From assembly GCF_003018115.1 (NCBI RefSeq), contig NZ_CP027457.1: DNA of 64,000 nucleotides; one strand, written 5' to 3'. Position numbers and translations under genes: made by a program. How positions within the stretch are numbered: the first letter of the stretch is position 1; each line of letters begins with the position of its first letter. The notes under the pieces are model-generated. The model searched no databases and had not been told where the DNA came from. It was given only the letters and a program-made list of their open reading frames with translations. This stretch comes from Escherichia coli. GTDB taxonomy: Bacteria > Pseudomonadota > Gammaproteobacteria > Enterobacterales > Enterobacteriaceae. Below, one piece after another: positions 9,940 through 35,832 of this stretch.

Positions 9940-10827
9940 ATGCCGCGTTTAACCGCCAAAGATTTCCCACAAGAGTTGCTGGATTACTACGACTATTACG
10001 CTCACGGGAAAATCTCGAAACGTGAGTTCCTCAACCTTGCGGCGAAGTATGCGATAGGCGGGATGACGGCATTAGCGTTGTTTGATTTGCTCAAGCCAAA
10101 TTATGCGCTGGCGACTCAGGTAGAGTTTACCGACCCGGAGATTGTTGCTGAGTACATCACGTATCCTTCGCCAAATGGTCACGGTGACGTACGTGGTTAT
10201 CTGGTGAAGCCCGCGAAGATGAGCGGCAAAACGCCAGCCGTGGTGGTGGTGCATGAGAATCGTGGACTGAATCCGTATATCGAAGATGTGGCACGGCGAG
10301 TGGCGAAGGCGGGGTATATCGCCCTGGCACCTGACGGCTTAAGTTCCGTTGGCGGTTATCCGGGTAATGATGATAAAGGTCGTGAGCTGCAACAGCAGGT
10401 TGATCCAACCAAACTGATGAATGATTTCTTTGCCGCAATTGAGTTTATGCAACGCTATCCGCAAGCGACAGGCAAAGTGGGTATTACCGGATTTTGCTAT
10501 GGCGGTGGCGTATCGAACGCGGCGGCTGTCGCGTATCCGGAACTGGCCTGCGCGGTGCCGTTTTATGGTCGTCAGGCACCCACTGCCGATGTGGCGAAGA
10601 TTGAAGCGCCTTTACTACTCCACTTCGCGGAACTGGACACCCGAATCAACGAGGGCTGGCCTGCTTACGAGGCGGCGTTGAAAGCCAATAATAAGGTTTA
10701 TGAGGCGTATATCTATCCGGGGGTTAATCACGGATTCCATAATGATTCCACGCCCCGTTATGACAAATCTGCCGCCGATCTTGCCTGGCAAAGGACACTG
10801 AAATGGTTCGATAAATATCTCTCCTGA
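9940..10827 (+). CDS. yghX: dienelactone hydrolase-family protein (intact YghX)
   Basis: ORF trimmed to ATG at 9940, preceded by GAGGAG Shine-Dalgarno; 295 aa; uninterrupted reading frame here. Confidence 0.8.
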   Translation: MPRLTAKDFPQELLDYYDYYAHGKISKREFLNLAAKYAIGGMTALALFDLLKPNYALATQVEFTDPEIVAEYITYPSPNGHGDVRGYLVKPAKMSGKTPAVVVVHENRGLNPYIEDVARRVAKAGYIALAPDGLSSVGGYPGNDDKGRELQQQVDPTKLMNDFFAAIEFMQRYPQATGKVGITGFCYGGGVSNAAAVAYPELACAVPFYGRQAPTADVAKIEAPLLLHFAELDTRINEGWPAYEAALKANNKVYEAYIYPGVNHGFHNDSTPRYDKSAADLAWQRTLKWFDKYLS

Positions 10828-22858: not shown

Positions 22859-23551
22859 CTAGTGATAACCACGCGCGGTCATAAAATCCGTAATCGCTTT
22901 TTCTGCATCAACCAACACCTGTTCCAGTGGCTGATTGGCATCGATATCAACCAGTTGTGCACCACCAAAGGTTAACTGTGGCGTTATGGCAATCTTCCTC
23001 GCCAGCGATTCCCGTTTATGGTCGGGTTTACGCGCGCAGGCCACGTCTAGATCGACATTGAGTTTGATGACCAGATCAGGCTTATGGCTCGCCATCCAGT
23101 GAAACGCTTTACGTTCCTGGCTTGCCAGCCATGAGACAAAACGACCACCTTCAACGTTAGGTGGGAACACCGTACCATCGTAAGCGCCAGGAATTTGGTC
23201 CTGAGGATAACGGTCGGTTAGAACAATTAACCCGCGACGACGACAGGCAAGCATATGACGAAAGCGCAGTAAGCGACGGGCGACAAACGCTGTAATTACC
23301 AGCGCCGGAACTGGTCCTGGCAATTTTTTTGCTGTTTTCACCTGATTTCGTTCAATTGTTTTATGTAAGGATTTTCCCATCAACGGTAATTTTGTCACTG
23401 CACGACCGACATTTCCGGCTTGTTTTCCTAAATGAACTCTTTCGGCAGCACCATATTTTTCGACAACGGTAATGAGATGTTCACACACCGTTGACTTGCC
23501 AGAACCATCGCTACCAATAACGGCAATTAATGGAGGTGTTATTGACTGCAT
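22859..23551 (-). CDS. yghT: P-loop NTPase/kinase-like protein (YghR/S/T paralog family)
   Basis: 230 aa; Walker [10 protein letters not shown]; DRYPQ motif; paralogous to the two downstream ORFs. Confidence 0.85.
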
Positions 23552-23724
23552 GAATATATCCTTAAATTTAAATATCCATCCAAAATATTTATTTGGTTAA
23601 TATGTTTTTATGAAAGCGTAATTCAGGTCAATGTCACAATTAACCATTGTCACAATAAGGTTGAACGGATATTCTGAGCACGGACCACGTAATATTCAAT
23701 ACATTATTTACTGCCGGGTTTTTC

Positions 23725-24438
23725 GTGAATCAACGTAATATGTCAATAATTAATTCCACGCCAGTGCGTGTTATTGCCATTGTAGGATGTGATGGTTCAG
23801 GTAAATCGACCCTCACGGCAAGCCTGGTAAATGAACTGGCAGCAAGAATGCCAACAGAACGCATTTATCTCGGGCAATCGTCCGGGCGAATTGGCGAATG
23901 GATTTCACAGCTCCCTGTTATTGGCGCACCTTTTGGGCGTTATCTGCGAAGTAAAGCGGCACATGTGCACGAAAAGCCCTCAACACCGCCTGGCAATATT
24001 ACTGCGCTGGTTATCTATCTGCTTTTCTGCTGGCGGGCGTACAAGTTTCGCAAAATGTTGTGTAGAAGCCAGCAAGGCCATCTGCTCATCACCGACCGCT
24101 ACCCGCAGGTTGAAGTGCCGGGTTTTCGCTTTGATGGCCCGCAATTGGCAAAAACCACGGGCGGTAACGGTTGGATAAAAATGTTAAGGCAGCGCGAGTT
24201 GAAGCTGTACCAATGGATGGCGTCTTATTTACCCGTATTGTTGATTCGTCTTGGCATTGATGAACAAACCGCGTTTGCGCGTAAACCTGACCACCAACTG
24301 GCAGCGTTACAGGAAAAAATCGCCGTTACGCCGCAATTGACATTCAATGGCGCAAAGATCCTTGAACTGGATGGTCGGCAACCAGCCGATGAAATTCTGC
24401 AAGCGTCACTACGCGCAATTCACGCCGCGCTTTCCTGA
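23725..24438 (+). CDS. yghS: P-loop NTPase/kinase-like protein (YghR/S/T paralog family)
   Basis: 237 aa from GTG start (alternative ATG at 23740); Walker A GCDGSGKST; DRYPQ; ARKPDH motif shared with paralogs. Confidence 0.85.
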   Translation: MNQRNMSIINSTPVRVIAIVGCDGSGKSTLTASLVNELAARMPTERIYLGQSSGRIGEWISQLPVIGAPFGRYLRSKAAHVHEKPSTPPGNITALVIYLLFCWRAYKFRKMLCRSQQGHLLITDRYPQVEVPGFRFDGPQLAKTTGGNGWIKMLRQRELKLYQWMASYLPVLLIRLGIDEQTAFARKPDHQLAALQEKIAVTPQLTFNGAKILELDGRQPADEILQASLRAIHAALS

Positions 24439-24469: not shown

Positions 24470-25228
24470 ATGGATGCACTACAAACACAAACTGTTATTA
24501 GTACAACCGCGCCACAGCCCAACTACATTCCGGGGCTGATTGCGGTGGTCGGGTGTGATGGCACCGGTAAATCCACACTGACCACCGACCTAGTGAAATC
24601 GCTGCAACAACACTGGCAAACCGAGCGGCGCTATCTGGGGCTGCTCTCCGGCGAAGACGGCGACAAAATCAAACGATTGCCGTTGGTTGGCGTCTGGCTG
24701 GAACGGCGACTGGCGGCCAAATCCTCGAAAACCCAAAGCATGAAAACCAAATCTCCGGCGCTATGGGCGGCGGTGATTATGTACTGCTTCTCGCTGCGAA
24801 GAATGGCGAATCTACGCAAGGTTCAGCGACTGGCGCAAAGTGGCGTTCTGGTGGTCAGCGATCGCTTCCCGCAGGCTGAAATTTCGGGCTTTTATTATGA
24901 CGGACCGGGGATTGGCGTCGAACGTGCGACCGGGAAAATCAGCATGTTTCTGGCGCAGCGCGAACGGCGTTTATACCAACAAATGGCGCAATATCGCCCG
25001 GAATTAATTATTCGCCTGGGCATTGATATTGAGACTGCCATCTCCCGCAAGCCTGACCATGACTATGCCGAGCTGCAGGACAAAATCGGCGTCATGTCGA
25101 CGATTGGCTATAACGGCACAAAAATTCTTGAGATTGATTCCAGAGCGCCCTACAGCGAAGTGCTGGAACAGGCACAGAAGGCGGTTTCTCTGGTTGCCAT
25201 CGCTTCTGACCGCCGAAGTTTAACTTAA
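24470..25228 (+). CDS. yghR: P-loop NTPase/kinase-like protein (YghR/S/T paralog family)
   Basis: 252 aa; Walker A GCDGTGKST; DRFPQ; SRKPDH. Confidence 0.85.
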   Translation: MDALQTQTVISTTAPQPNYIPGLIAVVGCDGTGKSTLTTDLVKSLQQHWQTERRYLGLLSGEDGDKIKRLPLVGVWLERRLAAKSSKTQSMKTKSPALWAAVIMYCFSLRRMANLRKVQRLAQSGVLVVSDRFPQAEISGFYYDGPGIGVERATGKISMFLAQRERRLYQQMAQYRPELIIRLGIDIETAISRKPDHDYAELQDKIGVMSTIGYNGTKILEIDSRAPYSEVLEQAQKAVSLVAIASDRRSLT

Positions 25229-25273: not shown

Positions 25274-26623
25274 TTGGCGGGTTTTAACATCAAACATTGG
25301 TTTGCAGATGGCGCGTTTCGCACCATTATTCGCAATAGCGCCTGGTTAGGCTCCAGTAATGTCGTGAGCGCCTTGCTGGGGCTGTTGGCGCTCTCGTGTG
25401 CCGGTAAAGGGATGACGCCCGCCATGTTTGGCGTACTGGTGATTGTGCAATCGTACGCCAAGTCGATCAGCGATTTTATTAAGTTTCAGACATGGCAGCT
25501 GGTGGTTCAGTACGGAACGCCAGCCTTGACCAACAATAATCCGCAGCAATTTCGCAATGTCGTCTCATTTTCCTTCTCGCTGGATATCGTCAGCGGCGCG
25601 GTGGCGATTGTCGGCGGCATTGCCTTACTGCCATTCCTTTCCCATTCATTAGGTCTGGATGACCAAAGCTTTTGGCTGGCGGCGCTGTATTGCACGCTCA
25701 TTCCTTCAATGGCTTCCTCCACGCCGACCGGCATTCTGCGTGCGGTAGATCGCTTTGATTTGATTGCTGTACAGCAGGCGACGAAACCTTTTCTGCGCGC
25801 AGCGGGGAGCGTCGCAGCCTGGTATTTTGACTTTGGTTTTGCGGGTTTTGTTATTGCCTGGTACGTGTCGAATCTGGTTGGCGGCACCATGTACTGGTGG
25901 TTTGCCGCGCGCGAATTACGCCGCAGAAATATCCATAACGCCTTCAAATTGAATCTGTTTGAGTCTGCCCGACACATTAAAGGCGCGTGGAGTTTTGTCT
26001 GGTCAACCAACATTGCCCACTCCATCTGGTCGGCGCGTAACTCGTGCAGCACAGTGTTGGTGGGGATCGTGTTAGGACCCGCTGCCGCCGGGTTATTTAA
26101 AATCGCCATGACATTCTTCGACGCCGCCGGAACGCCAGCGGGTTTGCTGGGTAAAAGTTTTTACCCAGAGGTGATGCGTTTAGATCCGCGCACCACCAGA
26201 CCGTGGTTGTTAGGCGTGAAGTCCGGTTTACTGGCGGGCGGAATCGGTATTCTGGTGGCGCTCGCGGTGTTGATCGTCGGCAAGCCGCTCATTTCGCTGG
26301 TATTTGGCGTTAAGTATCTCGAAGCGTATGACCTGATTCAGGTGATGCTGGGCGCAATTGTGATCTCGATGCTGGGCTTCCCGCAGGAGTCATTGCTATT
26401 GATGGCGGGAAAACAGCGCGCTTTTCTCGTGGCGCAAACCATCGCCTCAATCGGCTACATCGTATTGCTGTTCATGTTCTGTCATCTGTTTGGCGTGCTG
26501 GGGGCTGCATTTGCTTACTTCGTTGGGCAATGTCTGGATGTGGTGCTCTCGTTAATTCCAACCTTAAAGGCATTTTTTCAGCGCCATTCCTTGCTTTATA
26601 ACGCAGCCGGAGAGAAATCCTGA
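25274..26623 (+). CDS. yghQ: MOP/Wzx-like polytopic membrane flippase-family protein
   Basis: 449-codon hydrophobic ORF from TTG at 25274 (true start may be the internal Met at about 25412); recognised as YghQ-like; stop overlaps the next ORF start (ATGA). Confidence 0.8.
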   Translation: MAGFNIKHWFADGAFRTIIRNSAWLGSSNVVSALLGLLALSCAGKGMTPAMFGVLVIVQSYAKSISDFIKFQTWQLVVQYGTPALTNNNPQQFRNVVSFSFSLDIVSGAVAIVGGIALLPFLSHSLGLDDQSFWLAALYCTLIPSMASSTPTGILRAVDRFDLIAVQQATKPFLRAAGSVAAWYFDFGFAGFVIAWYVSNLVGGTMYWWFAARELRRRNIHNAFKLNLFESARHIKGAWSFVWSTNIAHSIWSARNSCSTVLVGIVLGPAAAGLFKIAMTFFDAAGTPAGLLGKSFYPEVMRLDPRTTRPWLLGVKSGLLAGGIGILVALAVLIVGKPLISLVFGVKYLEAYDLIQVMLGAIVISMLGFPQESLLLMAGKQRAFLVAQTIASIGYIVLLFMFCHLFGVLGAAFAYFVGQCLDVVLSLIPTLKAFFQRHSLLYNAAGEKS

Positions 26624-27447
26624 TGATGAGAAAATATTTCCCGCTTGAGGCGAGCGAGCGTCTATTTGTTGCGATTGAAGAAGATGATGTCGTTGATGCA
26701 CAGGTTAGTTTGCCGCCGACTATTGCACTAAGTTGTACCACCGAAATCATTCATGATAATTACGCGTTATGCCTGCAATTCTGGCTCAATGGCGTTAATC
26801 GTCAGGAATTACTGCGTTTAGTTCGCAAACAAGCCAAAGGCGATGAGCTGACTGCTGATGAGCGCAAACAATTTAAATACATGCGAGCGCGCTACAAGCA
26901 CCTGCGTTTTGCGCAACGGCTGTATTTAAAGAAGCATCAGGCCGGATTTTTATTCGGCAAAACGACCGTTTTTCTGGGACGTTTTCAGGACGGATTTCGT
27001 AACGGTAAGAAAAATATTGTGTCGTATTACGGCAACCTGTTACGAATTTATTTAAGCTCTCCGGTCTGGTCGTTGGTGAACTATTCATTACGCCATAGCC
27101 AGTTAGAAAGCGTAAGCGGTTTTATTGCCTATCGGCAAAAGCAAATGCATACCCTGAAAGAGATTATTGCCAAACCGCGACTAACCGGCAGGGAATTTCA
27201 TGATGTGCGAAAAATCATCAGCCAGCAGGTTTCTTATTACGACACCTTAAGATCGCTTGATCCTGAAAATAAAGAGGCGTTACAGATTTCCCGTTTCCTC
27301 GCCGCCATTAATGGCCTGATGGGGGATAAACACGACGACATGGTAGCGGATGATATGGAAAACCGCCAGTCGTATGATGCACCGGTGGCGCTGGATAGCG
27401 ATATTCGCCAGCGCTTAGAGCTGCTGATTTCGCGTTTTCCGCTATAA
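26623..27447 (+). CDS. hypothetical protein, basic, no recognisable motif
   Basis: 274-aa ORF translationally coupled to yghQ (ATGA overlap); no signal peptide or TM segment apparent. Confidence 0.6.
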   Translation: MMRKYFPLEASERLFVAIEEDDVVDAQVSLPPTIALSCTTEIIHDNYALCLQFWLNGVNRQELLRLVRKQAKGDELTADERKQFKYMRARYKHLRFAQRLYLKKHQAGFLFGKTTVFLGRFQDGFRNGKKNIVSYYGNLLRIYLSSPVWSLVNYSLRHSQLESVSGFIAYRQKQMHTLKEIIAKPRLTGREFHDVRKIISQQVSYYDTLRSLDPENKEALQISRFLAAINGLMGDKHDDMVADDMENRQSYDAPVALDSDIRQRLELLISRFPL

Positions 27448-27455
27448 CCGGAGCA

Positions 27456-28019
27456 ATGATGTCATCTCGTTTGATTATTGCGCTGATTATCATGCTCTTA
27501 GCCCCGGGTGTGCAGGCACACAATTTCGTCACTGGCAAAACGGTTACCCCTGTTTATATTCAGGAAGGCGGCGAGCTGCTTCTGAATAGCGACGACGAAA
27601 TTCACTACCAAAAGTGGAACAGCACACAATTGGCGGGAAAAGTCCGCATTATCCAGTATATCGCCGGGCGTAAGTCGGCGAAGAAAAAGAACTCACTGTT
27701 AATTAAAGCGGTTGAAGCGGCAAACTTTCCGCAGGATCGTTTTCAGCCCACCACCATTGTGAACACCGATGATGCCATCTTTGGTACTGGCTATTTTGTT
27801 GTTGGCAAAATCGAAAAAAATAAACGCCGCTATCCGTGGGCGCAATTCGTTATCGACGGCAATGGACAGGGACGCGTTGCCTGGCGCTTGCCGGAGCAGA
27901 GTTCAACCATTCTGGTGCTGGATAAAGCCGGGCAAATTCAGTGGGCAAAGGACGGCAGCCTGACGCCGGAAGAGGTAGATCATGTCATTGCGCTGGCGCA
28001 GAAACTGATCAATGAATAA
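27456..28019 (+). CDS. secreted/periplasmic protein, YtfJ-family-like
   Basis: 187 aa; N-terminal signal peptide (MMSSRLIIALIIMLLAPGVQA/HN); resembles E. coli YtfJ as recalled (TTIVNTDDAI...YPW..F..D.NG, QWAKDG.LTPEEV). Confidence 0.6.
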   Translation: MMSSRLIIALIIMLLAPGVQAHNFVTGKTVTPVYIQEGGELLLNSDDEIHYQKWNSTQLAGKVRIIQYIAGRKSAKKKNSLLIKAVEAANFPQDRFQPTTIVNTDDAIFGTGYFVVGKIEKNKRRYPWAQFVIDGNGQGRVAWRLPEQSSTILVLDKAGQIQWAKDGSLTPEEVDHVIALAQKLINE

Positions 28020-28049
28020 AAAATTCAAAGGATTGAGGGCGTTAGTGAG

Positions 28050-29120
28050 ATGAAGCTGGTTGAACACTACATCATGCGTGGTACGCGCCGTCTGGTGCTG
28101 ATTATCGTCGGTTTTCTGATCTTTATTTTCGCCAGCTACTCCGCACAGCGTTATCTGACCGAAGCGGCAAATGGGACATTAGCTCTTGATGTTGTGCTGG
28201 ATATCGTTTTCTACAAAGTGCTGATTGCACTGGAGATGTTGTTACCTGTTGGTCTGTATGTGTCAGTTGGCGTGACGCTAGGGCAGATGTATACCGACTC
28301 GGAAATTACCGCTATCTCTGCGGCGGGGGGCAGTCCGGGACGCTTGTACAAAGCCGTTCTTTATCTGGCGATACCGCTAAGTATTTTTGTCACCCTTCTG
28401 TCGATGTATGGTCGTCCGTGGGCTTATGCGCAGATTTATCAACTGGAGCAGCAGTCGCAGTCGGAGCTGGATGTTCGCCAGTTGCGGGCAAAGAAATTTA
28501 ACACTAACGATAACGGACGAATGATCCTTTCGCAGACGGTTGATCAGGATAATAATCGCCTGACTGACGCGCTGATTTATACTTCTACTGCCAATCGAAC
28601 CCGCATTTTCCGCGCCCGTTCGGTTGATGTGGTTGACCCATCACCCGAGAAACCGACCGTTATGTTGCACAACGGCACTGCCTATCTTCTCGATCATCAG
28701 GGTCGTGACGACAACGAACAGATCTACCGTAATCTGCAATTACATCTGAATCCGCTGGATCAAAGCCCTAACGTCAAACGCAAAGCAAAATCGGTCACGG
28801 AGCTGGCGCGCTCCGCCTTTCCTGCCGATCATGCCGAACTGCAATGGCGACAAAGCCGTGGCCTGACAGCATTGTTGATGGCGCTGCTGGCCATTTCATT
28901 AAGTCGGGTAAAACCGCGGCAGGGGCGATTTTCAACGTTATTGCCACTGACGTTGCTGTTTATTGCCATTTTTTATGGCGGCGACGTCTGCCGTACGCTG
29001 GTGGCTAACGGCGCGATTCCTCTCATTCCTGGTTTGTGGTTAGTGCCCGGACTCATGCTAATGGGCCTGCTGATGCTGGTTGCACGCGACTTCACTTTGC
29101 TGCAGAAATTTTCCCGATGA
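28050..29120 (+). CDS. LptF-like permease (YjgP/YjgQ family)
   Basis: 356 aa; N-terminal TM bundle then soluble domain then C-terminal TMs; LGQMYTDSEITAISAAG matches the LptF signature region as recalled (LGKLYTESEITVMHACG). Confidence 0.75.
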   Translation: MKLVEHYIMRGTRRLVLIIVGFLIFIFASYSAQRYLTEAANGTLALDVVLDIVFYKVLIALEMLLPVGLYVSVGVTLGQMYTDSEITAISAAGGSPGRLYKAVLYLAIPLSIFVTLLSMYGRPWAYAQIYQLEQQSQSELDVRQLRAKKFNTNDNGRMILSQTVDQDNNRLTDALIYTSTANRTRIFRARSVDVVDPSPEKPTVMLHNGTAYLLDHQGRDDNEQIYRNLQLHLNPLDQSPNVKRKAKSVTELARSAFPADHAELQWRQSRGLTALLMALLAISLSRVKPRQGRFSTLLPLTLLFIAIFYGGDVCRTLVANGAIPLIPGLWLVPGLMLMGLLMLVARDFTLLQKFSR

Positions 29121-30196
29121 ATGTTTTCAGTCGCTATTTAATCCGTCATCTCTTTCTCGGTTTTGCCGCCGCCGCAGGGCTATTGCTGCCGCTTTTTACC
29201 ACCTTCAACCTGATTAACGAACTGGATGATGTCAGCCCGGGCGGTTATCGCTGGACTCAGGCGGTGCTGGTGGTGCTAATGACCTTACCGCGCACACTGG
29301 TCGAACTTTCGCCGTTTATCGCCTTATTGGGAGGGATTGTCGGCCTGGGGCAGTTATCGAAAAACAGTGAGCTTACCGCCATTCGCAGCATGGGGTTTTC
29401 TATCTTCCGTATTGCACTGGTGGCGCTGGTTGCCGGGATATTGTGGACTGTTTCGTTAGGCGCGATAGATGAGTGGGTAGCGTCGCCGTTGCAGCAACAG
29501 GCGCTGCAAATCAAATCGACCGCCACTGCGTTGGGGGAGGACGATGATATTACCGGCAATATGCTTTGGGCCAGGCGCGGTAATGAATTTGTAACGGTGA
29601 AATCGCTGAACGAGCAGGGCCAGCCGGTGGGCGTGGAGATATTTCATTATCGCGACGATCTCTCGCTCGAATCCTACATTTATGCACGCAGTGCCACCAT
29701 TGAAGACGACAAAACGTGGATCCTGCATGGTGTGAATCATAAAAAATGGCTGAATGGCAAAGAAACGCTGGAAACATTAGATAATCTTGCCTGGCAATCG
29801 GCCTTCACCAGTATGGATCTTGAAGAGTTATCAATGCCGGGCAATACTTTTTCTGTCCGTCAGCTTAATCATTACATCCATTATTTGCAGGAAACCGGGC
29901 AACCCAGCAGCGAATACCGCCTTGCACTGTGGGAAAAACTGGGGCAACCCATCCTGACCCTGGCGATGATTTTGCTGGCTGTGCCGTTTACCTTTAGTGC
30001 CCCGCGCTCGCCAGGGATGGGTAGCCGTCTCGCTGTAGGTGTCATCGTTGGCTTACTCACCTGGATCAGCTATCAAATCATGGTCAATCTGGGATTGCTA
30101 TTTGCGTTGAGCGCACCTGTTACCGCGCTCGGTTTACCGATAGCGTTTGTGCTGGTGGCGTTGAGCCTGGTGTATTGGTATGACAGACAACATTAA
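29117..30196 (+). CDS. LptG-like permease (YjgP/YjgQ family)
   Basis: 359 aa from ATG at 29117 (MNVFSRYLIRH...), overlapping upstream stop by 4 nt; NSELTAIRSMGFS resembles LptG RSELVVMQASGF. Confidence 0.75.
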   Translation: MNVFSRYLIRHLFLGFAAAAGLLLPLFTTFNLINELDDVSPGGYRWTQAVLVVLMTLPRTLVELSPFIALLGGIVGLGQLSKNSELTAIRSMGFSIFRIALVALVAGILWTVSLGAIDEWVASPLQQQALQIKSTATALGEDDDITGNMLWARRGNEFVTVKSLNEQGQPVGVEIFHYRDDLSLESYIYARSATIEDDKTWILHGVNHKKWLNGKETLETLDNLAWQSAFTSMDLEELSMPGNTFSVRQLNHYIHYLQETGQPSSEYRLALWEKLGQPILTLAMILLAVPFTFSAPRSPGMGSRLAVGVIVGLLTWISYQIMVNLGLLFALSAPVTALGLPIAFVLVALSLVYWYDRQH

Positions 30197-30230
30197 ACCC
30201 GCCGTGGCGCAACACCACAGCGGGCTCACA

Positions 30231-31403
30231 TTACTGCTTCAGAGTAGCGAACGCTTGAATGATGGCATCAATTTGCTCACGACTGTGGGCAGCGTTTACG
30301 CTACAGCGCAGCAGCGTGATGCCTGCAGGCGCGGCAGGTGGCAGGATAAGATTCACATAAACGCCCAGCGAAATAAGCTCGCGCCAGATGCGTAAACCTT
30401 CCTCTTTCGAACCGATTATTACCGGCACTACCGGGCTAATATGTGAACTTAACTCATAACCCAGTTTTTGCAGACCGTCATACAGATGGTTGGCGTTATC
30501 CATCAGCTTTTGCCGCAGCTCTGGTTGTGTGGCAATGGTTCTTAACGACGAGCGCACGGTCGCAATGCAGGACGGAGAAGGAGAGGCGGTAAAAATATAC
30601 GGGCGGCTGCCGTAGCGCAGCACTTCCATCGCTTCCGAACCGACAGCAAAACCGCCAATCGAGGCCAGACTTTTACTGAAGGTACCAACGATAATATCCA
30701 CATCATCTTCAACGCCAACGGCTTCAGCCAGTCCGCGCCCCGTTGCGCCTAACACGCCAAACGAATGCGCTTCATCGACAATCAAATAACCACCGAGACG
30801 ACGTTTGATATCAACAATTTCCGCCAGCGGCGCAACGTCACCGAGCATGCTGTAGATGCCCTCAACGATGATAATCGCCTCTTTCGCCCGTTCACCGAGG
30901 CGAACCATGCGCCGTTCCAGATCTTTAGCATCGTTATGGCGGAAACGAATAATTTCCGCGCCACCGAGAGAACAGGCGTCATAAATACTGGCGTGGCTGT
31001 CGGCATCCAGTAACACCACGGCGTTATGGTCGGCAAGTGCGCTGATGACGCCTAAATTAGCGGTATAACCGGTTGAAAAAACGATAGCGGTAGGGCGATT
31101 GAAAAACTCGGCAATCTCTTTCTCTAACGCCAGGTGCGGCGCATAACTGCCGTTTGCCATACGAGAACCGGTGGTGCCGGTGCCTTGGGCCGCTAACGCT
31201 GTCTGACCTTCGGCGATGGCATCATGATTAAAGGTTAAACCGAGGTAATTATTGGTCCCGGCCAGAATCACTTTTTTATTGCCGATCCGGCCTTCGGTGG
31301 CGGAATACACTTCATCAATACAGGTGCCAAACGGTGTTAACCCATTGTCACTAAATTGCAGTCGCTCGCCAGCAAGGCGCGCATATTTATCATATAGCCC
31401 CAT
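30231..31403 (-). CDS. alpha-oxoamine synthase family PLP enzyme, serine palmitoyltransferase-like
   Basis: 390 aa; class-II aminotransferase fold with PLP-lysine motif GTFSKSLASIGGF; encoded immediately downstream of a dedicated ACP. Confidence 0.8.
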   Translation of the reverse strand: MGLYDKYARLAGERLQFSDNGLTPFGTCIDEVYSATEGRIGNKKVILAGTNNYLGLTFNHDAIAEGQTALAAQGTGTTGSRMANGSYAPHLALEKEIAEFFNRPTAIVFSTGYTANLGVISALADHNAVVLLDADSHASIYDACSLGGAEIIRFRHNDAKDLERRMVRLGERAKEAIIIVEGIYSMLGDVAPLAEIVDIKRRLGGYLIVDEAHSFGVLGATGRGLAEAVGVEDDVDIIVGTFSKSLASIGGFAVGSEAMEVLRYGSRPYIFTASPSPSCIATVRSSLRTIATQPELRQKLMDNANHLYDGLQKLGYELSSHISPVVPVIIGSKEEGLRIWRELISLGVYVNLILPPAAPAGITLLRCSVNAAHSREQIDAIIQAFATLKQ

Positions 31404-31651
31404 TATTTATTCTCCAGCCATGGAAGTAGAGTTTCCATTAATTGCGCAGGGGTTTTGACATCCAGCAGAATATTAATAGGAATGGAAATATCGAATCTGT
31501 CTTCCAGCATCATTAAGAGATCCATCACTTTGATCGACTCCAGGCCAAGATCGTTGACGAGATCGCTGTCGGGCTTAATTTCCACACCGTTTTCGACCAA
31601 ATCCTGTAAACAGGAAAGGATGTAATCCATTACTATTTCACGATTTACCAT
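31403..31651 (-). CDS. acyl carrier protein
   Basis: 82 aa, acidic; phosphopantetheine-site motif DLGLESI; shares a boundary nucleotide with the downstream synthase gene. Confidence 0.75.
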   Translation of the reverse strand: MVNREIVMDYILSCLQDLVENGVEIKPDSDLVNDLGLESIKVMDLLMMLEDRFDISIPINILLDVKTPAQLMETLLPWLENK

Positions 31652-31682
31652 AGAAACGTTAACACACCTTTAAACAAGACAA

Positions 31683-32597
31683 TCAAAATAGCCCGTTGCG
31701 TAATGCGTGTTCCAGGCTAATCCCGGGAAACCAATTAATATCTTCAGAAATACGGTTATTACTTGCCGACCAGTCGGCGTGGGTTAATTCACGAATTTTC
31801 GAGCGGGTCAGCATAGGTTCTTTACCTGCCAGGCGGCTCAACGCGGTACTGATATCCGCAAGGCAGGTGAGTACCGGCAGAGGAATGCCAACCATTCGCA
31901 CGGAACCACAACGGGCGTCGGCGGCAAGTTGCTGTACGCGTTGCCAGTCATAGCCGCCAGCGACGCCATCGCATAATTCATAGGTTTGCGTCTGTACAGT
32001 TTCGGCGCTTAACCACTGACCCACTGCTTGCGCGAAATCGGTGACGTGCAGGAAAGAGAGCTGTGTATCTGGCGCACCAAGTCGTGGCAGCAGGCCGCGC
32101 AGCATCCAGTCAAACAGCGGTTTTAACTCTTTATCGCCGGGGCCATACACGGCTGTCGGGCGAAAAACGCCCAGCGTAATTTTGTCAGCCATTGCAGTCA
32201 GCCGTTGTTCGGCGACGTATTTGGAATTTGCGTACCAGGAGAGTTCGGGATGGCGCGCCGCCAGCGAAGAGATAAACAGAAAACGTTGGCAAAAACCGCT
32301 CTCTTTTGCCGCCTGCATCAGGCGCAGACTGCCGTCAACGTTACAGCGGGTGAAAATCTCTTCTTTGTGCCCGCGCACTTGTCCGGCGCAATGAACCACC
32401 GCGCTGGCTCCGGCAACCAGTTCGCTAAGCGAATGTGTATCTTCCAGCGAACCGCGCACCCAGGTGAGATTATCATTGACGTGAGCGCGGGCAGTACGCG
32501 TCAATGCGCGAACGTGAAAGCCGCGGGCGAGCAGGTTATTGATAATATATTTACCGATAAACCCGGTAGCGCCCGTCACCGCGACAGTTTGATTCAT
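31683..32597 (-). CDS. NAD(P)-dependent epimerase/dehydratase-family SDR (candidate keto-reductase)
   Basis: 304 aa; N-terminal Rossmann motif VTGATGFIGK; start overlaps stop of upstream acyl-ACP synthetase (ATGA). Confidence 0.8.
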   Translation of the reverse strand: MNQTVAVTGATGFIGKYIINNLLARGFHVRALTRTARAHVNDNLTWVRGSLEDTHSLSELVAGASAVVHCAGQVRGHKEEIFTRCNVDGSLRLMQAAKESGFCQRFLFISSLAARHPELSWYANSKYVAEQRLTAMADKITLGVFRPTAVYGPGDKELKPLFDWMLRGLLPRLGAPDTQLSFLHVTDFAQAVGQWLSAETVQTQTYELCDGVAGGYDWQRVQQLAADARCGSVRMVGIPLPVLTCLADISTALSRLAGKEPMLTRSKIRELTHADWSASNNRISEDINWFPGISLEHALRNGLF

Positions 32598-34327
32598 GCC
32601 AGGGATTCCTGCACATGAAGGCTTGCAGCATAAGCCTTCTGATAACGTTTTTTCGCTTCCGCACGGGCAGGCTTGCCGGAGGACGTTCGGGGAATGCTGT
32701 GGGGCGGCAACAGATCGATAGCCGCGGTCACGCCAAATTCGCTTTGGATCCGTGCTGCCAGCGCGTGGATAAGCTGCCCGCGACGTTCTTCATCGCTGAT
32801 CCGACACTGGATCTGCAAAATGATTTTTTCCTGGGCGGTAACAAAAGCAATCGCATCGCCAGAATGAATTTCCGGTTCCTGTTCCGCTATATATTCAATA
32901 TCCTGCGGCCAGATATTACGGCCACGAATAATAATCAGATCTTTAATGCGTCCGGTGACATACAGATAACCGTCCAGCAGATAACCGAGGTCGCCAGTGT
33001 CTAACCAGCCCGTCGCGGCAATCTCGTCTTGCGAAGCCTGGTCGCCAAAGTAACCGCTCATCAGACTGGGACCGGAGATGCAAATATGGCCTACCACACG
33101 TTCCGCGACCGGCATACCTGCTTCATTGCGGATTTCAATACCATGTTCCGGCAACGCTTTGCCGCAGTTGACGAAAGTCGATACGGCGCGTGTCTCTGCA
33201 CCCGGCGCGACGGCTTTACCCTGATATTCGAGGATGTCGCGATCCACTTCGTTAACCACAACCCCGGAGGCTTCATCAGAGAAGCTGACAGCCAGCGCAT
33301 TTTCTGCCAGTCCGTAGCACGGCATGAAAGTTTTATTGTCAAAGTTAACCTGACGGAAACATTCAGCGAATTGATGGAGTTGTTCTGCGGAGATGGGTTC
33401 TGCACCAATACCAGCGACGCGCCAGCAGGAAAGATCCAGTTCAGCGAGATCTTTTTCATTCACGCGGCGCTGGCACAATTCATAGCCAAACGGCGGCGCA
33501 ACGGAAACGGTGCCGCGATTTTTACTGATCAATTTAAGCCATTGCAGAGGACGCATGGCAAAATCCTGAGTGCGCAAATAATCTACTGAAAGTTGCGTGG
33601 CGACGGGGGTCAGGAGAAAGCCGACCAGTCCCATATCATGGTAGAAAGGCAGCCAGGAGACGCAGCGGTCGCCAGGGCGTAATTTAATGCCATCGTGGCT
33701 TATGGCGCGTAGATTAGCCATCACTTCGCGGTGAGTGATAATGACGCCACGGGGAAAACGGGTGCTGCCGGAGGTGTACTGGAGGTAGGCGATATCGTTC
33801 GGAACTGGACGCTGGAGCGCAACATCGGCTTCCGGTAATGCCTTAAACCAGGCGTGGCTTAAAACATGTAATTCGGGGTTGTTGTTATGCGTCGCGGCAT
33901 TGACCAGCGGTAACCACTCATCACCAGTGATAATGGCTGCGGGCTGGCAACTTGCCAGTAAACCCTGCAGTTTGGCGCTCCAGGAATCCCGCTGACCGAC
34001 GCCCATTGGAATCGCCAATGGTACGGCAACTAATCCAGCATACTGACAGGCAAAAAATGCCTCGACAAACCCGCTACTGGTTTCGGCAATCAGCGCCACG
34101 CGATCGCCTTTTTTCAGGTTTAGCGATAACAACCGCTTCGCACCAGCTTCGGCACGCGCTTTTAACGTCTGATATTCCAGTTGATCTTCAAGTTGGCAAC
34201 GTCTGTCATAAAAATTCATTCCAGCGCTACTCAGAGCGGCGTAGTCCAAAGCATCAACCAGCGTTGGAAAATCGGCATAGCGCATAGGTAGGGAATGCGT
34301 AAAGATTTTATTAGACATATACACCAC
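32594..34327 (-). CDS. fatty acyl-AMP ligase / acyl-ACP synthetase (adenylate-forming enzyme)
   Basis: 577 aa; AMP-binding core motif YTSGSTRFPRGV and downstream GYG/TGD adenylation motifs; first gene of a 4-gene minus-strand operon. Confidence 0.8.
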   Translation of the reverse strand: MVYMSNKIFTHSLPMRYADFPTLVDALDYAALSSAGMNFYDRRCQLEDQLEYQTLKARAEAGAKRLLSLNLKKGDRVALIAETSSGFVEAFFACQYAGLVAVPLAIPMGVGQRDSWSAKLQGLLASCQPAAIITGDEWLPLVNAATHNNNPELHVLSHAWFKALPEADVALQRPVPNDIAYLQYTSGSTRFPRGVIITHREVMANLRAISHDGIKLRPGDRCVSWLPFYHDMGLVGFLLTPVATQLSVDYLRTQDFAMRPLQWLKLISKNRGTVSVAPPFGYELCQRRVNEKDLAELDLSCWRVAGIGAEPISAEQLHQFAECFRQVNFDNKTFMPCYGLAENALAVSFSDEASGVVVNEVDRDILEYQGKAVAPGAETRAVSTFVNCGKALPEHGIEIRNEAGMPVAERVVGHICISGPSLMSGYFGDQASQDEIAATGWLDTGDLGYLLDGYLYVTGRIKDLIIIRGRNIWPQDIEYIAEQEPEIHSGDAIAFVTAQEKIILQIQCRISDEERRGQLIHALAARIQSEFGVTAAIDLLPPHSIPRTSSGKPARAEAKKRYQKAYAASLHVQESLA

Positions 34328-34689
34328 GAAAAAATTGGATATCCAAAATAAAATGACAATAATGCGGTGGATTATATAGGCATAAAAGATAAATGAGATA
34401 GTATTTTCATCAGTGTGAAAATGAACATTGATTTAAATAATGAGTTTAAGTTTTTTTGTTTTTATTGTGAATGATATTTAATTTATGAATATATTAAGAA
34501 GAAGCCTTGTCCGGTCGCCTTAAATCGACAAAAGGCATTGTGGCGCTTCTGTGTAGTCGCTGACCTTATCGTAATCATTAATAAATACTATTTATTCGTC
34601 GTTTGTATTCATTGGGTTGATTATTAAGGTGCCGTTCGTTGCTGTTGCAACCTGTTTGTCACCGTTAATTATTTGTTACCCACAGAACT
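34328..34689. promoter_or_regulatory. AT-rich divergent control region (lipid operon / yghO)
   Basis: 362-bp intergenic region of markedly low GC between divergently oriented genes. Confidence 0.45.
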
Positions 34690-35832
34690 ATGGAATGCGA
34701 TCTGCTGATGATTAAAATTGAAAAAGTAATAAATAAAAACGACTTAAAGGCATTTATCGCTTTTCCGTCATCACTTTATCCCGACGATCCAAACTGGATA
34801 CCCCCTTTATTCATTGAACGCAACGAGCATTTGTCTGCGAAAAATCCGGGGACGGACCATATCATCTGGCAGGCGTGGGTGGCAAAAAAAGCGGGGCAGA
34901 TAGTTGGGCGTATTACCGCGCAAATAGATACCTTGCACCGCGAGCGTTACGGCAAAGATACCGGTCATTTCGGCATGATTGACGCCATTGATGATCCGCA
35001 GGTTTTTGCCGCGTTGTTTGGCGCAGCGGAAGCGTGGTTGAAGTCCCAAGGTGCAAGTAAGATCAGCGGTCCTTTCAGCCTGAATATCAATCAGGAAAGC
35101 GGATTACTGATTGAAGGTTTTGACACACCACCCTGTGCGATGATGCCACACGGCAAACCGTGGTATGCCGCGCATATTGAACAACTGGGTTATCACAAAG
35201 GCATTGATTTACTGGCGTGGTGGATGCAGCGAACCGATCTCACTTTCTCTCCGGCGCTAAAAAAACTGATGGATCAGGTGCGCAAAAAGGTGACCATTCG
35301 CTGCATCAATCGCCAGCGGTTTGCCGAAGAGATGCAGATCCTGCGTGAGATTTTCAACTCTGGCTGGCAACACAACTGGGGATTTGTGCCGTTTACCGAA
35401 CATGAATTCGCGACCATGGGCGATCAACTTAAATATCTGGTGCCGGACGATATGATCTACATCGCTGAGATTGATTCTGCACCCTGCGCGTTTATTGTCG
35501 GCTTGCCGAACATCAACGAGGCGATTGCCGATCTGAACGGATCGCTCTTTCCCTTCGGCTGGGCAAAATTGCTGTGGCGTTTGAAAGTCAGCGGTGTGCG
35601 AACTGCGCGAGTACCGCTGATGGGCGTGCGCGACGAGTATCAGTTCAGCCGCATCGGCCCGGTGATTGCGCTGTTATTGATTGAAGCCTTACGCGATCCG
35701 TTTGCCCGCCGGAAGATCGATGCGCTGGAGATGTCATGGATCCTCGAAACCAATACAGGCATGAATAACATGCTGGAACGCATTGGGGCGGAGCCGTACA
35801 AGCGTTACCGATTGTATGAAAAGCAGATTTAA
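34690..35832 (+). CDS. yghO: GNAT-superfamily-like acyltransferase (full-length YghO)
   Basis: 380-codon ORF (start possibly at internal Met, 34708); position corresponds to yghO next to glcC; acyltransferase assignment is tentative. Confidence 0.65.
   Translation: MECDLLMIKIEKVINKNDLKAFIAFPSSLYPDDPNWIPPLFIERNEHLSAKNPGTDHIIWQAWVAKKAGQIVGRITAQIDTLHRERYGKDTGHFGMIDAIDDPQVFAALFGAAEAWLKSQGASKISGPFSLNINQESGLLIEGFDTPPCAMMPHGKPWYAAHIEQLGYHKGIDLLAWWMQRTDLTFSPALKKLMDQVRKKVTIRCINRQRFAEEMQILREIFNSGWQHNWGFVPFTEHEFATMGDQLKYLVPDDMIYIAEIDSAPCAFIVGLPNINEAIADLNGSLFPFGWAKLLWRLKVSGVRTARVPLMGVRDEYQFSRIGPVIALLLIEALRDPFARRKIDALEMSWILETNTGMNNMLERIGAEPYKRYRLYEKQI

Follow-up and report, generated by a model that had tools for sequence, protein, structure and literature searches.

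Bacterial sphingolipid synthesis is now largely mapped, and the components that export these lipids are an acknowledged gap. In Escherichia coli, the question arises at a sphingolipid locus in which two uncharacterized genes, ORF274 and ytfJ2 (ORF187), lie between the flippase gene yghQ and a pair of genes for LptFG-like permeases, lptF2 and lptG2: what do these two genes contribute? The locus was analyzed in a window of 64,000 nucleotides from the assembly GCF_003018115.1 (contig NZ_CP027457.1), which is chromosomal DNA of a non-K-12 E. coli nearly identical to genomes of enterotoxigenic E. coli (ETEC) O169:H41. The published E. coli sphingolipid cluster is the same locus (PMC9386255), and the UTI89 locus is drawn in Fig. 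2B of a recent preprint (bioRxiv 10.64898/2026.04.12.717747). ORF274 and ytfJ2 are true, conserved genes within this known cluster of non-K-12 E. coli. We found no paper that assigns a function to either gene; the preprint cited above and PMC11087976 discuss neither. A literature search for 'ybl138', the UniProt name of ORF274, returned unrelated yeast papers only.

Both plus-strand open reading frames (ORFs) proposed in the initial annotation, of 274 and 187 amino acids, are present, and both are annotated by RefSeq across thousands of E. coli genomes, the first as 'hypothetical protein' and the second, with a start at 27459, as 'YtfJ family protein'. The tight gene string in which they had been placed is likewise real, as judged from measured gaps and overlaps: the spacing is 31 nt for yghS-yghR, 45 nt for yghR-yghQ, 8 nt for ORF274-ytfJ2 and 30 nt for ytfJ2-lptF2, with overlaps of 1 nt for yghQ-ORF274 and 4 nt for lptF2-lptG2, and a 16-bp hairpin closes the string. 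ORF274 had been said to start on the yghQ stop codon in an ATGA overlap. The actual yghQ TGA occupies 26621-26623 and the ORF274 ATG 26623-26625, such that a single base is shared (TGATG); the ATGA overlap of this gene pair exists in other Escherichia loci and in Sphingomonadales. A consensus scan of the window revealed no convincing internal terminator within the yghS-lptG2 string. The scan backs an operon only weakly because promoter- and terminator-like sites were no more frequent than expected by chance.

The neighborhood of the two genes was evaluated using an ORF274-based scan of one genome per species, which yielded 48 loci, 45 of them with enough upstream flank to judge yghQ. The flippase gene was directly upstream of ORF274 in 43 of these 45, with -11 to +17 nt between stop and start. 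In the other two loci, both from Pluralibacter, ORF274 is a second copy that stands alone. Similarly, ytfJ2 adjoined ORF274 in 43/43 Enterobacterales cluster loci from ~20 genera; it was on the opposite strand in one of them and immediately downstream on the same strand in the rest, at gaps of -7 to 538 nt. Within 10 kb, spt, acpR, cerR, aasR and yghO were all found wherever an Enterobacterales or Rhodanobacteraceae locus had sufficient flank. Moreover, the yghQ-ORF274 pairing outlasts rearrangement, with the spt operon upstream or downstream and lptF2G2 on either strand. Thus, occurrence of the two genes independently of each other or of the lipid operon, for which the initial annotation had suggested a comparative check, was not borne out; pairing and co-location across the 48 loci agree with its proposal that both belong with yghQ, the LptFG-like pair and the Spt operon. 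Based on these data, both genes are very probably a functional part of the sphingolipid locus.

The neighbors of ORF274 recur beyond the Enterobacterales. In Rhodanobacter, Luteibacter and Dyella, a single string on the plus strand comprises yghS, yghR, aasR, cerR, acpR, spt, yghQ and ORF274. In Sphingobium cloacae, one Sphingomonas genome and contig L057, two to three YghR/S/T-like genes are followed by a YghQ ortholog (41-55% identity) and ORF274 (34-46%), apart from spt; over the Rhodanobacteraceae, Sphingomonadales and L057 together, yghQ orthologs were 41-64% identical. Two metagenomic contigs that have no yghQ, L051 (1241-2020) and L058 (5691-6506), carry an ORF274 homolog beside a YghT-like gene and a gene for a MobA-like nucleotidyltransferase (PF12804). 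Finally, local BLAST and Pfam revealed that in P0235 an APH-family kinase domain is naturally fused to two ORF274-like domains; in P0235 and P0237 (~980 amino acids), the APH-type kinase domain precedes the ORF274-like domains. A further protein, P0122 (564 amino acids, metagenomic), is a fused tandem ORF274 pair. NCBIfam searches with nine longer ORF274 relatives, including the putative fusions, returned nothing, and two short metagenomic contigs gave no view of the context of ORF274. Because the gene order recurs outside the Enterobacterales, the kinase-like genes persist on yghQ-less contigs and a kinase fusion exists, P-loop kinase-like proteins and a MOP-type flippase are the constant companions of ORF274.

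Three other arrangements were noted in the survey. Luteibacter carries a tandem duplicate of the ORF274 homolog (L045, 9152-9955 and 10001-10816). In Pluralibacter gergoviae (L019) and a Pluralibacter metagenome-assembled genome (L031), the stand-alone paralog at ~10001-10800 is 56-59% identical, and its neighbors in L019 are unrelated genes for a BCCT transporter, an amidohydrolase, an MFS transporter and a LysR regulator. A contig attributed to the alphaproteobacterium Martelella alba BGMRC 2031 (L037) has the cluster in the Enterobacterales gene order, with 61-78% protein identity to E. coli, and may be a contaminant or mislabelled.

ORF274 and ytfJ2 are nevertheless different modules: ORF274 occurs with the flippase and kinases in alpha- and gammaproteobacteria, whereas ytfJ2 is an Enterobacterales-only addition. 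Indeed, no ytfJ2 was found in the loci of Rhodanobacteraceae, Sphingomonadales or L057. The initial annotation had described the string as an envelope-spanning transport module. The functional association stands; the envelope-spanning character is conjectural, the two genes act as separate modules, and no outer-membrane component is encoded at the window locus.

Structure prediction, suggested earlier as a check, was performed for both proteins and yielded a CHAD fold for ORF274 and a thioredoxin fold for YtfJ2. The modeled ORF274 consists of two four-helix bundles related by pseudo-twofold symmetry, the architecture of CHAD domains. The protein is all-helical and soluble, has no hydrophobic or membrane segment, and has a pI of 9.4. 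The closest known counterparts are CHAD (PF05235) domains: RcCHAD (6qv5), CtCHAD (3e0s), PptA (6rn5) and, from E. coli, the C-terminal domain of YgiF (5a61). The description of ORF274 as motif-free is therefore correct for the sequence libraries, as neither Pfam nor NCBIfam has a match, and incorrect for the fold; PADLOC gave no match either. Within the protein, the two halves align with each other in the register expected (hhalign, E 0.01), pairing K-x-x-R-A-x-x-K-H-L-R-F ... G-x-x-Q-D with F-H-x-x-R-K-I-I-S ... G-x-x-H-D. This alignment corresponds to the internal twofold repeat expected for a CHAD domain (PMC6537752). In addition, 7 of 40 members of the ORF274 family match Pfam CHAD at an E value of 0.1 or better (best, 1.6e-3), and the fusion protein P0235 does so at 0.0027. 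The sequence support for CHAD is weak but consistent. The family is small, with 285 representatives at an E value of 0.001 or better among 1.84 billion proteins, and its named relatives are concentrated in sphingolipid-producing groups. As modeled, it would form a divergent, separate branch of the CHAD fold, and because the Pfam sequence model does not recognize ORF274, we have not filed it as a member of Pfam CHAD.

CHAD domains bind phosphate polymers via conserved basic surfaces (PMC6537752), and ORF274, which is itself basic and soluble, has a fold resembling those of the proven polyphosphate (polyP)-binding domains (PMC6537752). It could accordingly be an ordinary polyP-binding CHAD protein, for instance one of polyP granules, with no specific part in sphingolipid metabolism; the two stand-alone Pluralibacter copies among unrelated genes would suit such a protein. 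We consider this very unlikely. The family is distinct from Pfam CHAD as well as small, and its named relatives are mostly found in sphingolipid producers. CHAD domains are usually fused to, or in an operon with, polyP enzymes (TTM/CYTH, PPK, PPX), whereas the neighbors of ORF274 are yghQ, yghRST-like genes and sphingolipid genes, and no gene for a polyP kinase, phosphatase or TTM protein was found nearby in the clustered loci examined. Over several orders, ORF274 stays with yghQ and/or YghRST-like genes despite rearrangement of the locus.

Conserved residues also bear on the possible roles of ORF274. Across the 40 family members, which share 22-57% identity, R88, H193, R196, H237 and D238 never vary, and K85, K92, R95 and K197 are almost invariant; an acidic N-terminal motif, D21 and D22, is also conserved. 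By our reading of the model, K85/R88/K92/R95 and H193/R196/K197 would each lie on a single face of a helix, in two equivalent long helices, with a spacing of i, i+3, i+7 and i+10. An alternative role is that of a ligand-free helical scaffold or regulatory subunit for YghR/S/T, YghQ or both, in which the acidic motif could be a docking element. The kinase-like genes are the most constant neighbors of ORF274 even where yghQ is missing, a kinase is naturally fused to two ORF274-like domains, and the tight coupling to yghQ suggests matched protein amounts, all of which would fit a scaffold. However, the best-conserved positions are basic residues and histidine on the helix faces of two equivalent helices, a pattern of CHAD ligand surfaces and not of a typical protein interface. 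We judge a pure scaffold to be unlikely, although such a role is compatible with the ligand-binding one that we propose below.

The second protein, YtfJ2, matches PF09695 over residues 26-183 (6.6e-60) and TIGR01626 with 214.8 bits (cut-off, 151.1), in agreement with its earlier description as YtfJ-like. The signal peptide described for it is also apparent: MMSSRLIIALIIMLLAPGVQA, followed by HN, as read from the sequence. The N-terminus has a basic n-region, one hydrophobic segment whose KD19 value peaks at 2.03 (residue 1), and V-Q-A at positions -3 to -1. This is a standard Sec signal, and the V-Q-A precedes an invariant A-H-N-F. The protein is thus predicted to be periplasmic. Its modeled fold is of the TlpA/ResA-type thioredoxin class, which it shares with the TlpA/ResA/DsbE/CcmG oxidoreductases and the peroxiredoxins, but the CxxC or peroxidatic cysteine of those proteins is not present in YtfJ2. 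Indeed, YtfJ2 contains zero cysteines, and the mature proteins of 15 aligned relatives, including core YtfJ of K-12, likewise contain none. The segment after the first core strand is GRKSAKKKN, corresponding to a conserved basic motif, GRxSAKxxN, at the place where redox-active relatives have CxxC. A redox role for YtfJ2 was ruled out, as there is no cysteine at all. An LptC-like role by homology was rejected for both proteins: LptC has an N-terminal membrane anchor and a beta-jellyroll (PF06835), whereas ORF274 is all-helical and soluble and YtfJ2 has an alpha/beta thioredoxin fold; no LptC model in NCBIfam or Pfam matched either protein.

The relationship of YtfJ2 to core YtfJ bears on whether its function is particular to the locus. 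Core ytfJ (b4216; YtfJ_HI0045 family) is a single gene that is present in 5417 of 5426 complete E. coli genomes, and because of this, ytfJ2, whose stretch occurs in 4176 of them, is an extra, accessory paralog. Both proteins have a signal peptide; ytfJ2 is embedded in the sphingolipid string, whereas core ytfJ is elsewhere. Core YtfJ is listed as periplasmic, with a promoter recognized by sigma-E (PMC4447067). The two proteins share 55% identity over their full length and the same invariant motifs. YtfJ2 might therefore be a redundant duplicate of an envelope-stress protein, with a general periplasmic role, that was captured in an ancestor of the Enterobacterales; its absence from sphingolipid loci outside that order and its variable distance from ORF274 would be in keeping with this. 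We assign redundancy a low probability. The place of ytfJ2 beside ORF274 is kept in every Enterobacterales cluster locus while the spt operon and lptF2G2 shift place and strand, and the gene is under purifying selection; a copy that was merely redundant should have disappeared from many lineages.

Selection was evaluated from comparisons with other Escherichia using the ratio of nonsynonymous to synonymous divergence (dN/dS). The values were 0.06-0.07 for ORF274 and 0.10-0.13 for ytfJ2, comparable to those of yghQ and lptF2, with a range of 0.03-0.13 across the four genes. Both ORFs are under purifying selection. For the same pairs of genomes, synonymous divergence was higher in ORF274 (0.64-0.72) than in yghQ and lptF2 (0.24-0.54). 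No coding stretch of the cluster is less conserved between Escherichia lineages than the 5' part of ORF274 (window 26500-27000), with 81-85% nucleotide identity versus ~90% around it; recombination or old alleles may be the cause. The sliding identity profile shows only this modest dip and gives little support to the idea that ORF274-ytfJ2 is an unusually divergent allele.

These values also bear on whether the E. coli locus has a present function. A decaying remnant would account for the deletion in K-12, for the ~23% of complete genomes that have no such stretch, and for a nonsense mutation in aasR of a near-identical ETEC genome; moreover, we found no paper reporting a native E. coli sphingolipid. 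Nevertheless, all 13 cluster genes are intact in the window, the dN/dS values are low, the stretch occurs in most complete genomes, and expression of E. coli Spt, AcpR and AasR yields active proteins, which in the case of BL21 form 3-oxo-sphinganine (PMC9386255). A functionless remnant is accordingly most improbable. The activities of Spt, AcpR and AasR, and the evidence that ties Caulobacter homologs of LptF2G2 to sphingolipid export (bioRxiv 10.64898/2026.04.12.717747), also render outdated, for the locus and for LptF2G2, the earlier statement that its parts lack assigned functions.

Comparison of loci further suggests two layers of organization. Three Rhodanobacteraceae loci are without lptF2G2 as well as ytfJ2. 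In Rhodanobacter, Luteibacter and Dyella, a complete MdtA/MdtB/MdtC-type resistance-nodulation-division (RND) pump and an outer-membrane factor are encoded at the equivalent position, beside yghO (L043, 10804-19619, and the equivalents in L045 and L047). The pump may be an alternative export route in Rhodanobacteraceae. A transporter of the RND superfamily (MmpL) has been described beside spt in Myxococcus (bioRxiv 10.64898/2026.04.12.717747). The data suggest a constant inner-membrane unit, comprising the kinases, the flippase and the CHAD-like protein, and an exchangeable trans-envelope branch, which would be LptF2G2 with YtfJ2 in Enterobacterales and the RND pump in Rhodanobacteraceae.

Taking the reality of the genes, their folds, predicted locations and synteny as the basis, we propose the following ligands, partners and steps. 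At the cytoplasmic face of the inner membrane, ORF274 would bind a phosphorylated, anionic ligand via its basic helix faces, by analogy with CHAD domains. The likeliest ligand would be a head group or activated precursor made with the YghR/S/T kinase-like proteins: a polyphosphate-binding fold beside three kinase-like genes points, by analogy, to a phosphorylated head group. ORF274 would thereby couple head-group chemistry to flipping by YghQ. On the periplasmic side, YtfJ2 would bind the same anionic lipid or head group at its GRxSAKxxN site and might assist the hand-over to LptF2G2 or protect the lipid in transit. Taken as a whole, this explanation, from membership in the sphingolipid locus to the binding roles of the cytoplasmic and periplasmic products in flipping and export, is in our estimation evenly poised between right and wrong. 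The specific ligand and step given for each protein are more tentative, and doubtful in the form stated. We further speculate that the ORF274 family is a lipid-dedicated CHAD branch recognizing a phosphoanhydride-rich, that is, pyro- or polyphosphorylated, ceramide head group built by YghR/S/T. Many E. coli and other proteobacteria would then possess an undescribed phosphosphingolipid that is flipped by YghQ and, in Enterobacterales, handed by YtfJ2 to LptF2G2. This extension is a long shot.

Several observations weigh against our proposal. With respect to the fold of ORF274, the window protein gave no match to Pfam CHAD even at an E value of 10; searches of the PDB with ORF274-family profiles retrieved no solved CHAD structure, and either nothing or a chance match only; and the family profile aligned to E. 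coli YgiF with an hhalign probability of 0.3%, which is not significant. The YtfJ2 model is of moderate confidence, with a predicted local distance difference test score (pLDDT) of 75.6. YghT, YghS and YghR score 21-32 bits against TIGR00041, for which the cut-off is 83, and their dTMP-kinase matches are thus sub-threshold. In several genera, lptF2G2 is on the other strand, and ytfJ2 keeps to ORF274 and does not move along. Because of this, the link of ytfJ2 to the Lpt branch would rest mainly on their joint absence in three related genera. Finally, the stretch is dispensable, being present in only ~77% of complete E. coli genomes. In K-12 MG1655 (L055, NC_000913.3 3129043-3132408, corresponding to ~26300-34800 of the window), IS5 (insH9) separates yghO from a shortened yghQ, and the IS5-associated deletion took the 3' end of yghQ, ORF274, ytfJ2, lptF2G2 and the spt operon. 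Over 14.6 kb, 4 positions distinguish the window from ETEC NZ_LR882990.1; at one of them, 33981, the window has C and NZ_LR882990.1 has T, and the resulting internal stop makes aasR a pseudogene in the latter (L001, 18195-19886).

The analysis nonetheless provides two candidates, on opposite sides of the inner membrane as predicted, for unassigned steps of sphingolipid export. Flippases, periplasmic carriers and outer-membrane components are said still to be identified (PMC11087976; bioRxiv 10.64898/2026.04.12.717747); if the speculative extension of our proposal is correct, YtfJ2 would be one of the periplasmic components that the field lists as missing. The analysis may also offer a first functional lead for core periplasmic YtfJ, with its sigma-E-recognized promoter. 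Further, the analysis defines a conserved unit of YghRST-like kinases, YghQ and a CHAD-like protein that is common to Enterobacterales, Rhodanobacteraceae and Sphingomonadales, plus contig L057. The new elements are the predicted CHAD fold, this kinase-flippase-CHAD unit over several orders, and a cysteine-free YtfJ paralog as a lineage-specific addition that is absent together with LptF2G2 where the RND pump is present. We found no literature joining 'CHAD domain' and 'sphingolipid'. The locus escaped the usual genetics because it is missing from K-12, and K-12, as the standard laboratory strain, cannot serve for the study of ORF274 or ytfJ2.

In the RefSeq annotation, the gene order in the window is hyb, yghU, gss, pitB, yghT (-), yghS, yghR, yghQ, ORF274, ytfJ2, lptF2, lptG2, spt (-), acpR (-), cerR (-), aasR (-), yghO (+) and glcC (Table 1). 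The products of yghT, yghS and yghR are three paralogous P-loop proteins, two of which RefSeq calls 'dTMP kinase'. Given their scores, that label is probably mistaken. As the three genes are constantly linked to those of the flippase and the CHAD-like protein, YghR/S/T are putative lipid or head-group kinases. A sequence search with YghR gave no solved homolog. Among the anti-phage defense models of PADLOC, YtfJ2 and YghQ, like ORF274, had no match, and the YghR/S/T kinases had only generic P-loop matches with E values above 1e-4.

Table 1. Features of the sphingolipid locus and its surroundings, in window coordinates.
Feature	Coordinates	Strand	Description
yghT	22859..23551	-	P-loop protein (dTMP-kinase-like), divergent from yghS; ORF, RefSeq, weak dTMP-kinase NCBIfam matches; conserved across loci
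Promoter-like site ahead of yghS	23647-23675		Score not above chance
yghS	23725..24438	+	P-loop kinase-like; first gene of the string; ORF, NCBIfam, RefSeq
yghR	24470..25228	+	P-loop kinase-like; ORF, NCBIfam, RefSeq
yghQ	25274..26623	+	MOP/Wzx-type (Polysacc_synt) flippase; full length in the window, IS5-truncated in K-12
ORF274 ('Ybl138' in UniProt)	26623..27447	+	274 amino acids; predicted soluble, basic, cytoplasmic protein with divergent CHAD fold
ytfJ2 (ORF187)	27456..28019	+	187 amino acids; predicted Sec-exported, cysteine-free, thioredoxin-fold protein; YtfJ family, paralog of core ytfJ
lptF2	28050..29120	+	LptF-family permease; TIGR04407, 319 bits; Caulobacter homolog studied in bioRxiv 10.64898/2026.04.12.717747
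lptG2	29117..30196	+	LptG-family permease; TIGR04408, 308 bits; ATGA overlap onto lptF2
GC-rich hairpin, 16 bp	30194-30228		Between convergent lptG2 and spt; likely bidirectional terminator
spt	30231..31403	-	Serine palmitoyltransferase; E. coli BL21 ortholog active (PMC9386255)
acpR	31403..31651	-	Specialized acyl carrier protein (PMC9386255)
cerR/epi	31683..32597	-	NAD-dependent epimerase-family ceramide reductase homolog (PMC9386255; PMC11087976)
aasR	32594..34327	-	Fatty acyl-AMP ligase / acyl-AcpR synthetase; intact in the window
yghO	34690..35832	+	'aca' in PMC9386255: acyl-CoA N-acyltransferase, counterpart of CC_1154/bCerS

A further comparison is with Caulobacter. The preprint sets the UTI89 locus beside the Caulobacter and Sphingomonas loci (bioRxiv 10.64898/2026.04.12.717747); the supplements of PMC11324152 contain no table of E. 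coli orthologs. Once Caulobacter produces anionic sphingolipid, it requires its LptF2/LptG2 homologs, which work with LptB, and LptC2 is said to be restricted to Caulobacter (bioRxiv 10.64898/2026.04.12.717747). The description as a MobA-like nucleotidyltransferase, given above for the product encoded beside ORF274 on the two yghQ-less contigs, has also been applied to Caulobacter CC_1153, which is required for ceramide diphosphoglycerate. The Caulobacter crescentus locus resembles that of E. coli in having spt, acpR, cerR, aasR, a ceramide synthase homolog, a second LptF/LptG pair and a Polysacc_synt-type flippase (putatively CC_1166) (PMC11324152), but contains no CHAD-like or YtfJ-like gene in the published analysis (PMC11324152, S1 Text). 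Conversely, the E. coli locus, with its 13 annotated genes, is without LptC2, CerK (CC_1160) and the Tam41-like (CC_1161)/Cpg enzymes, and has instead three P-loop genes, ORF274 and ytfJ2.

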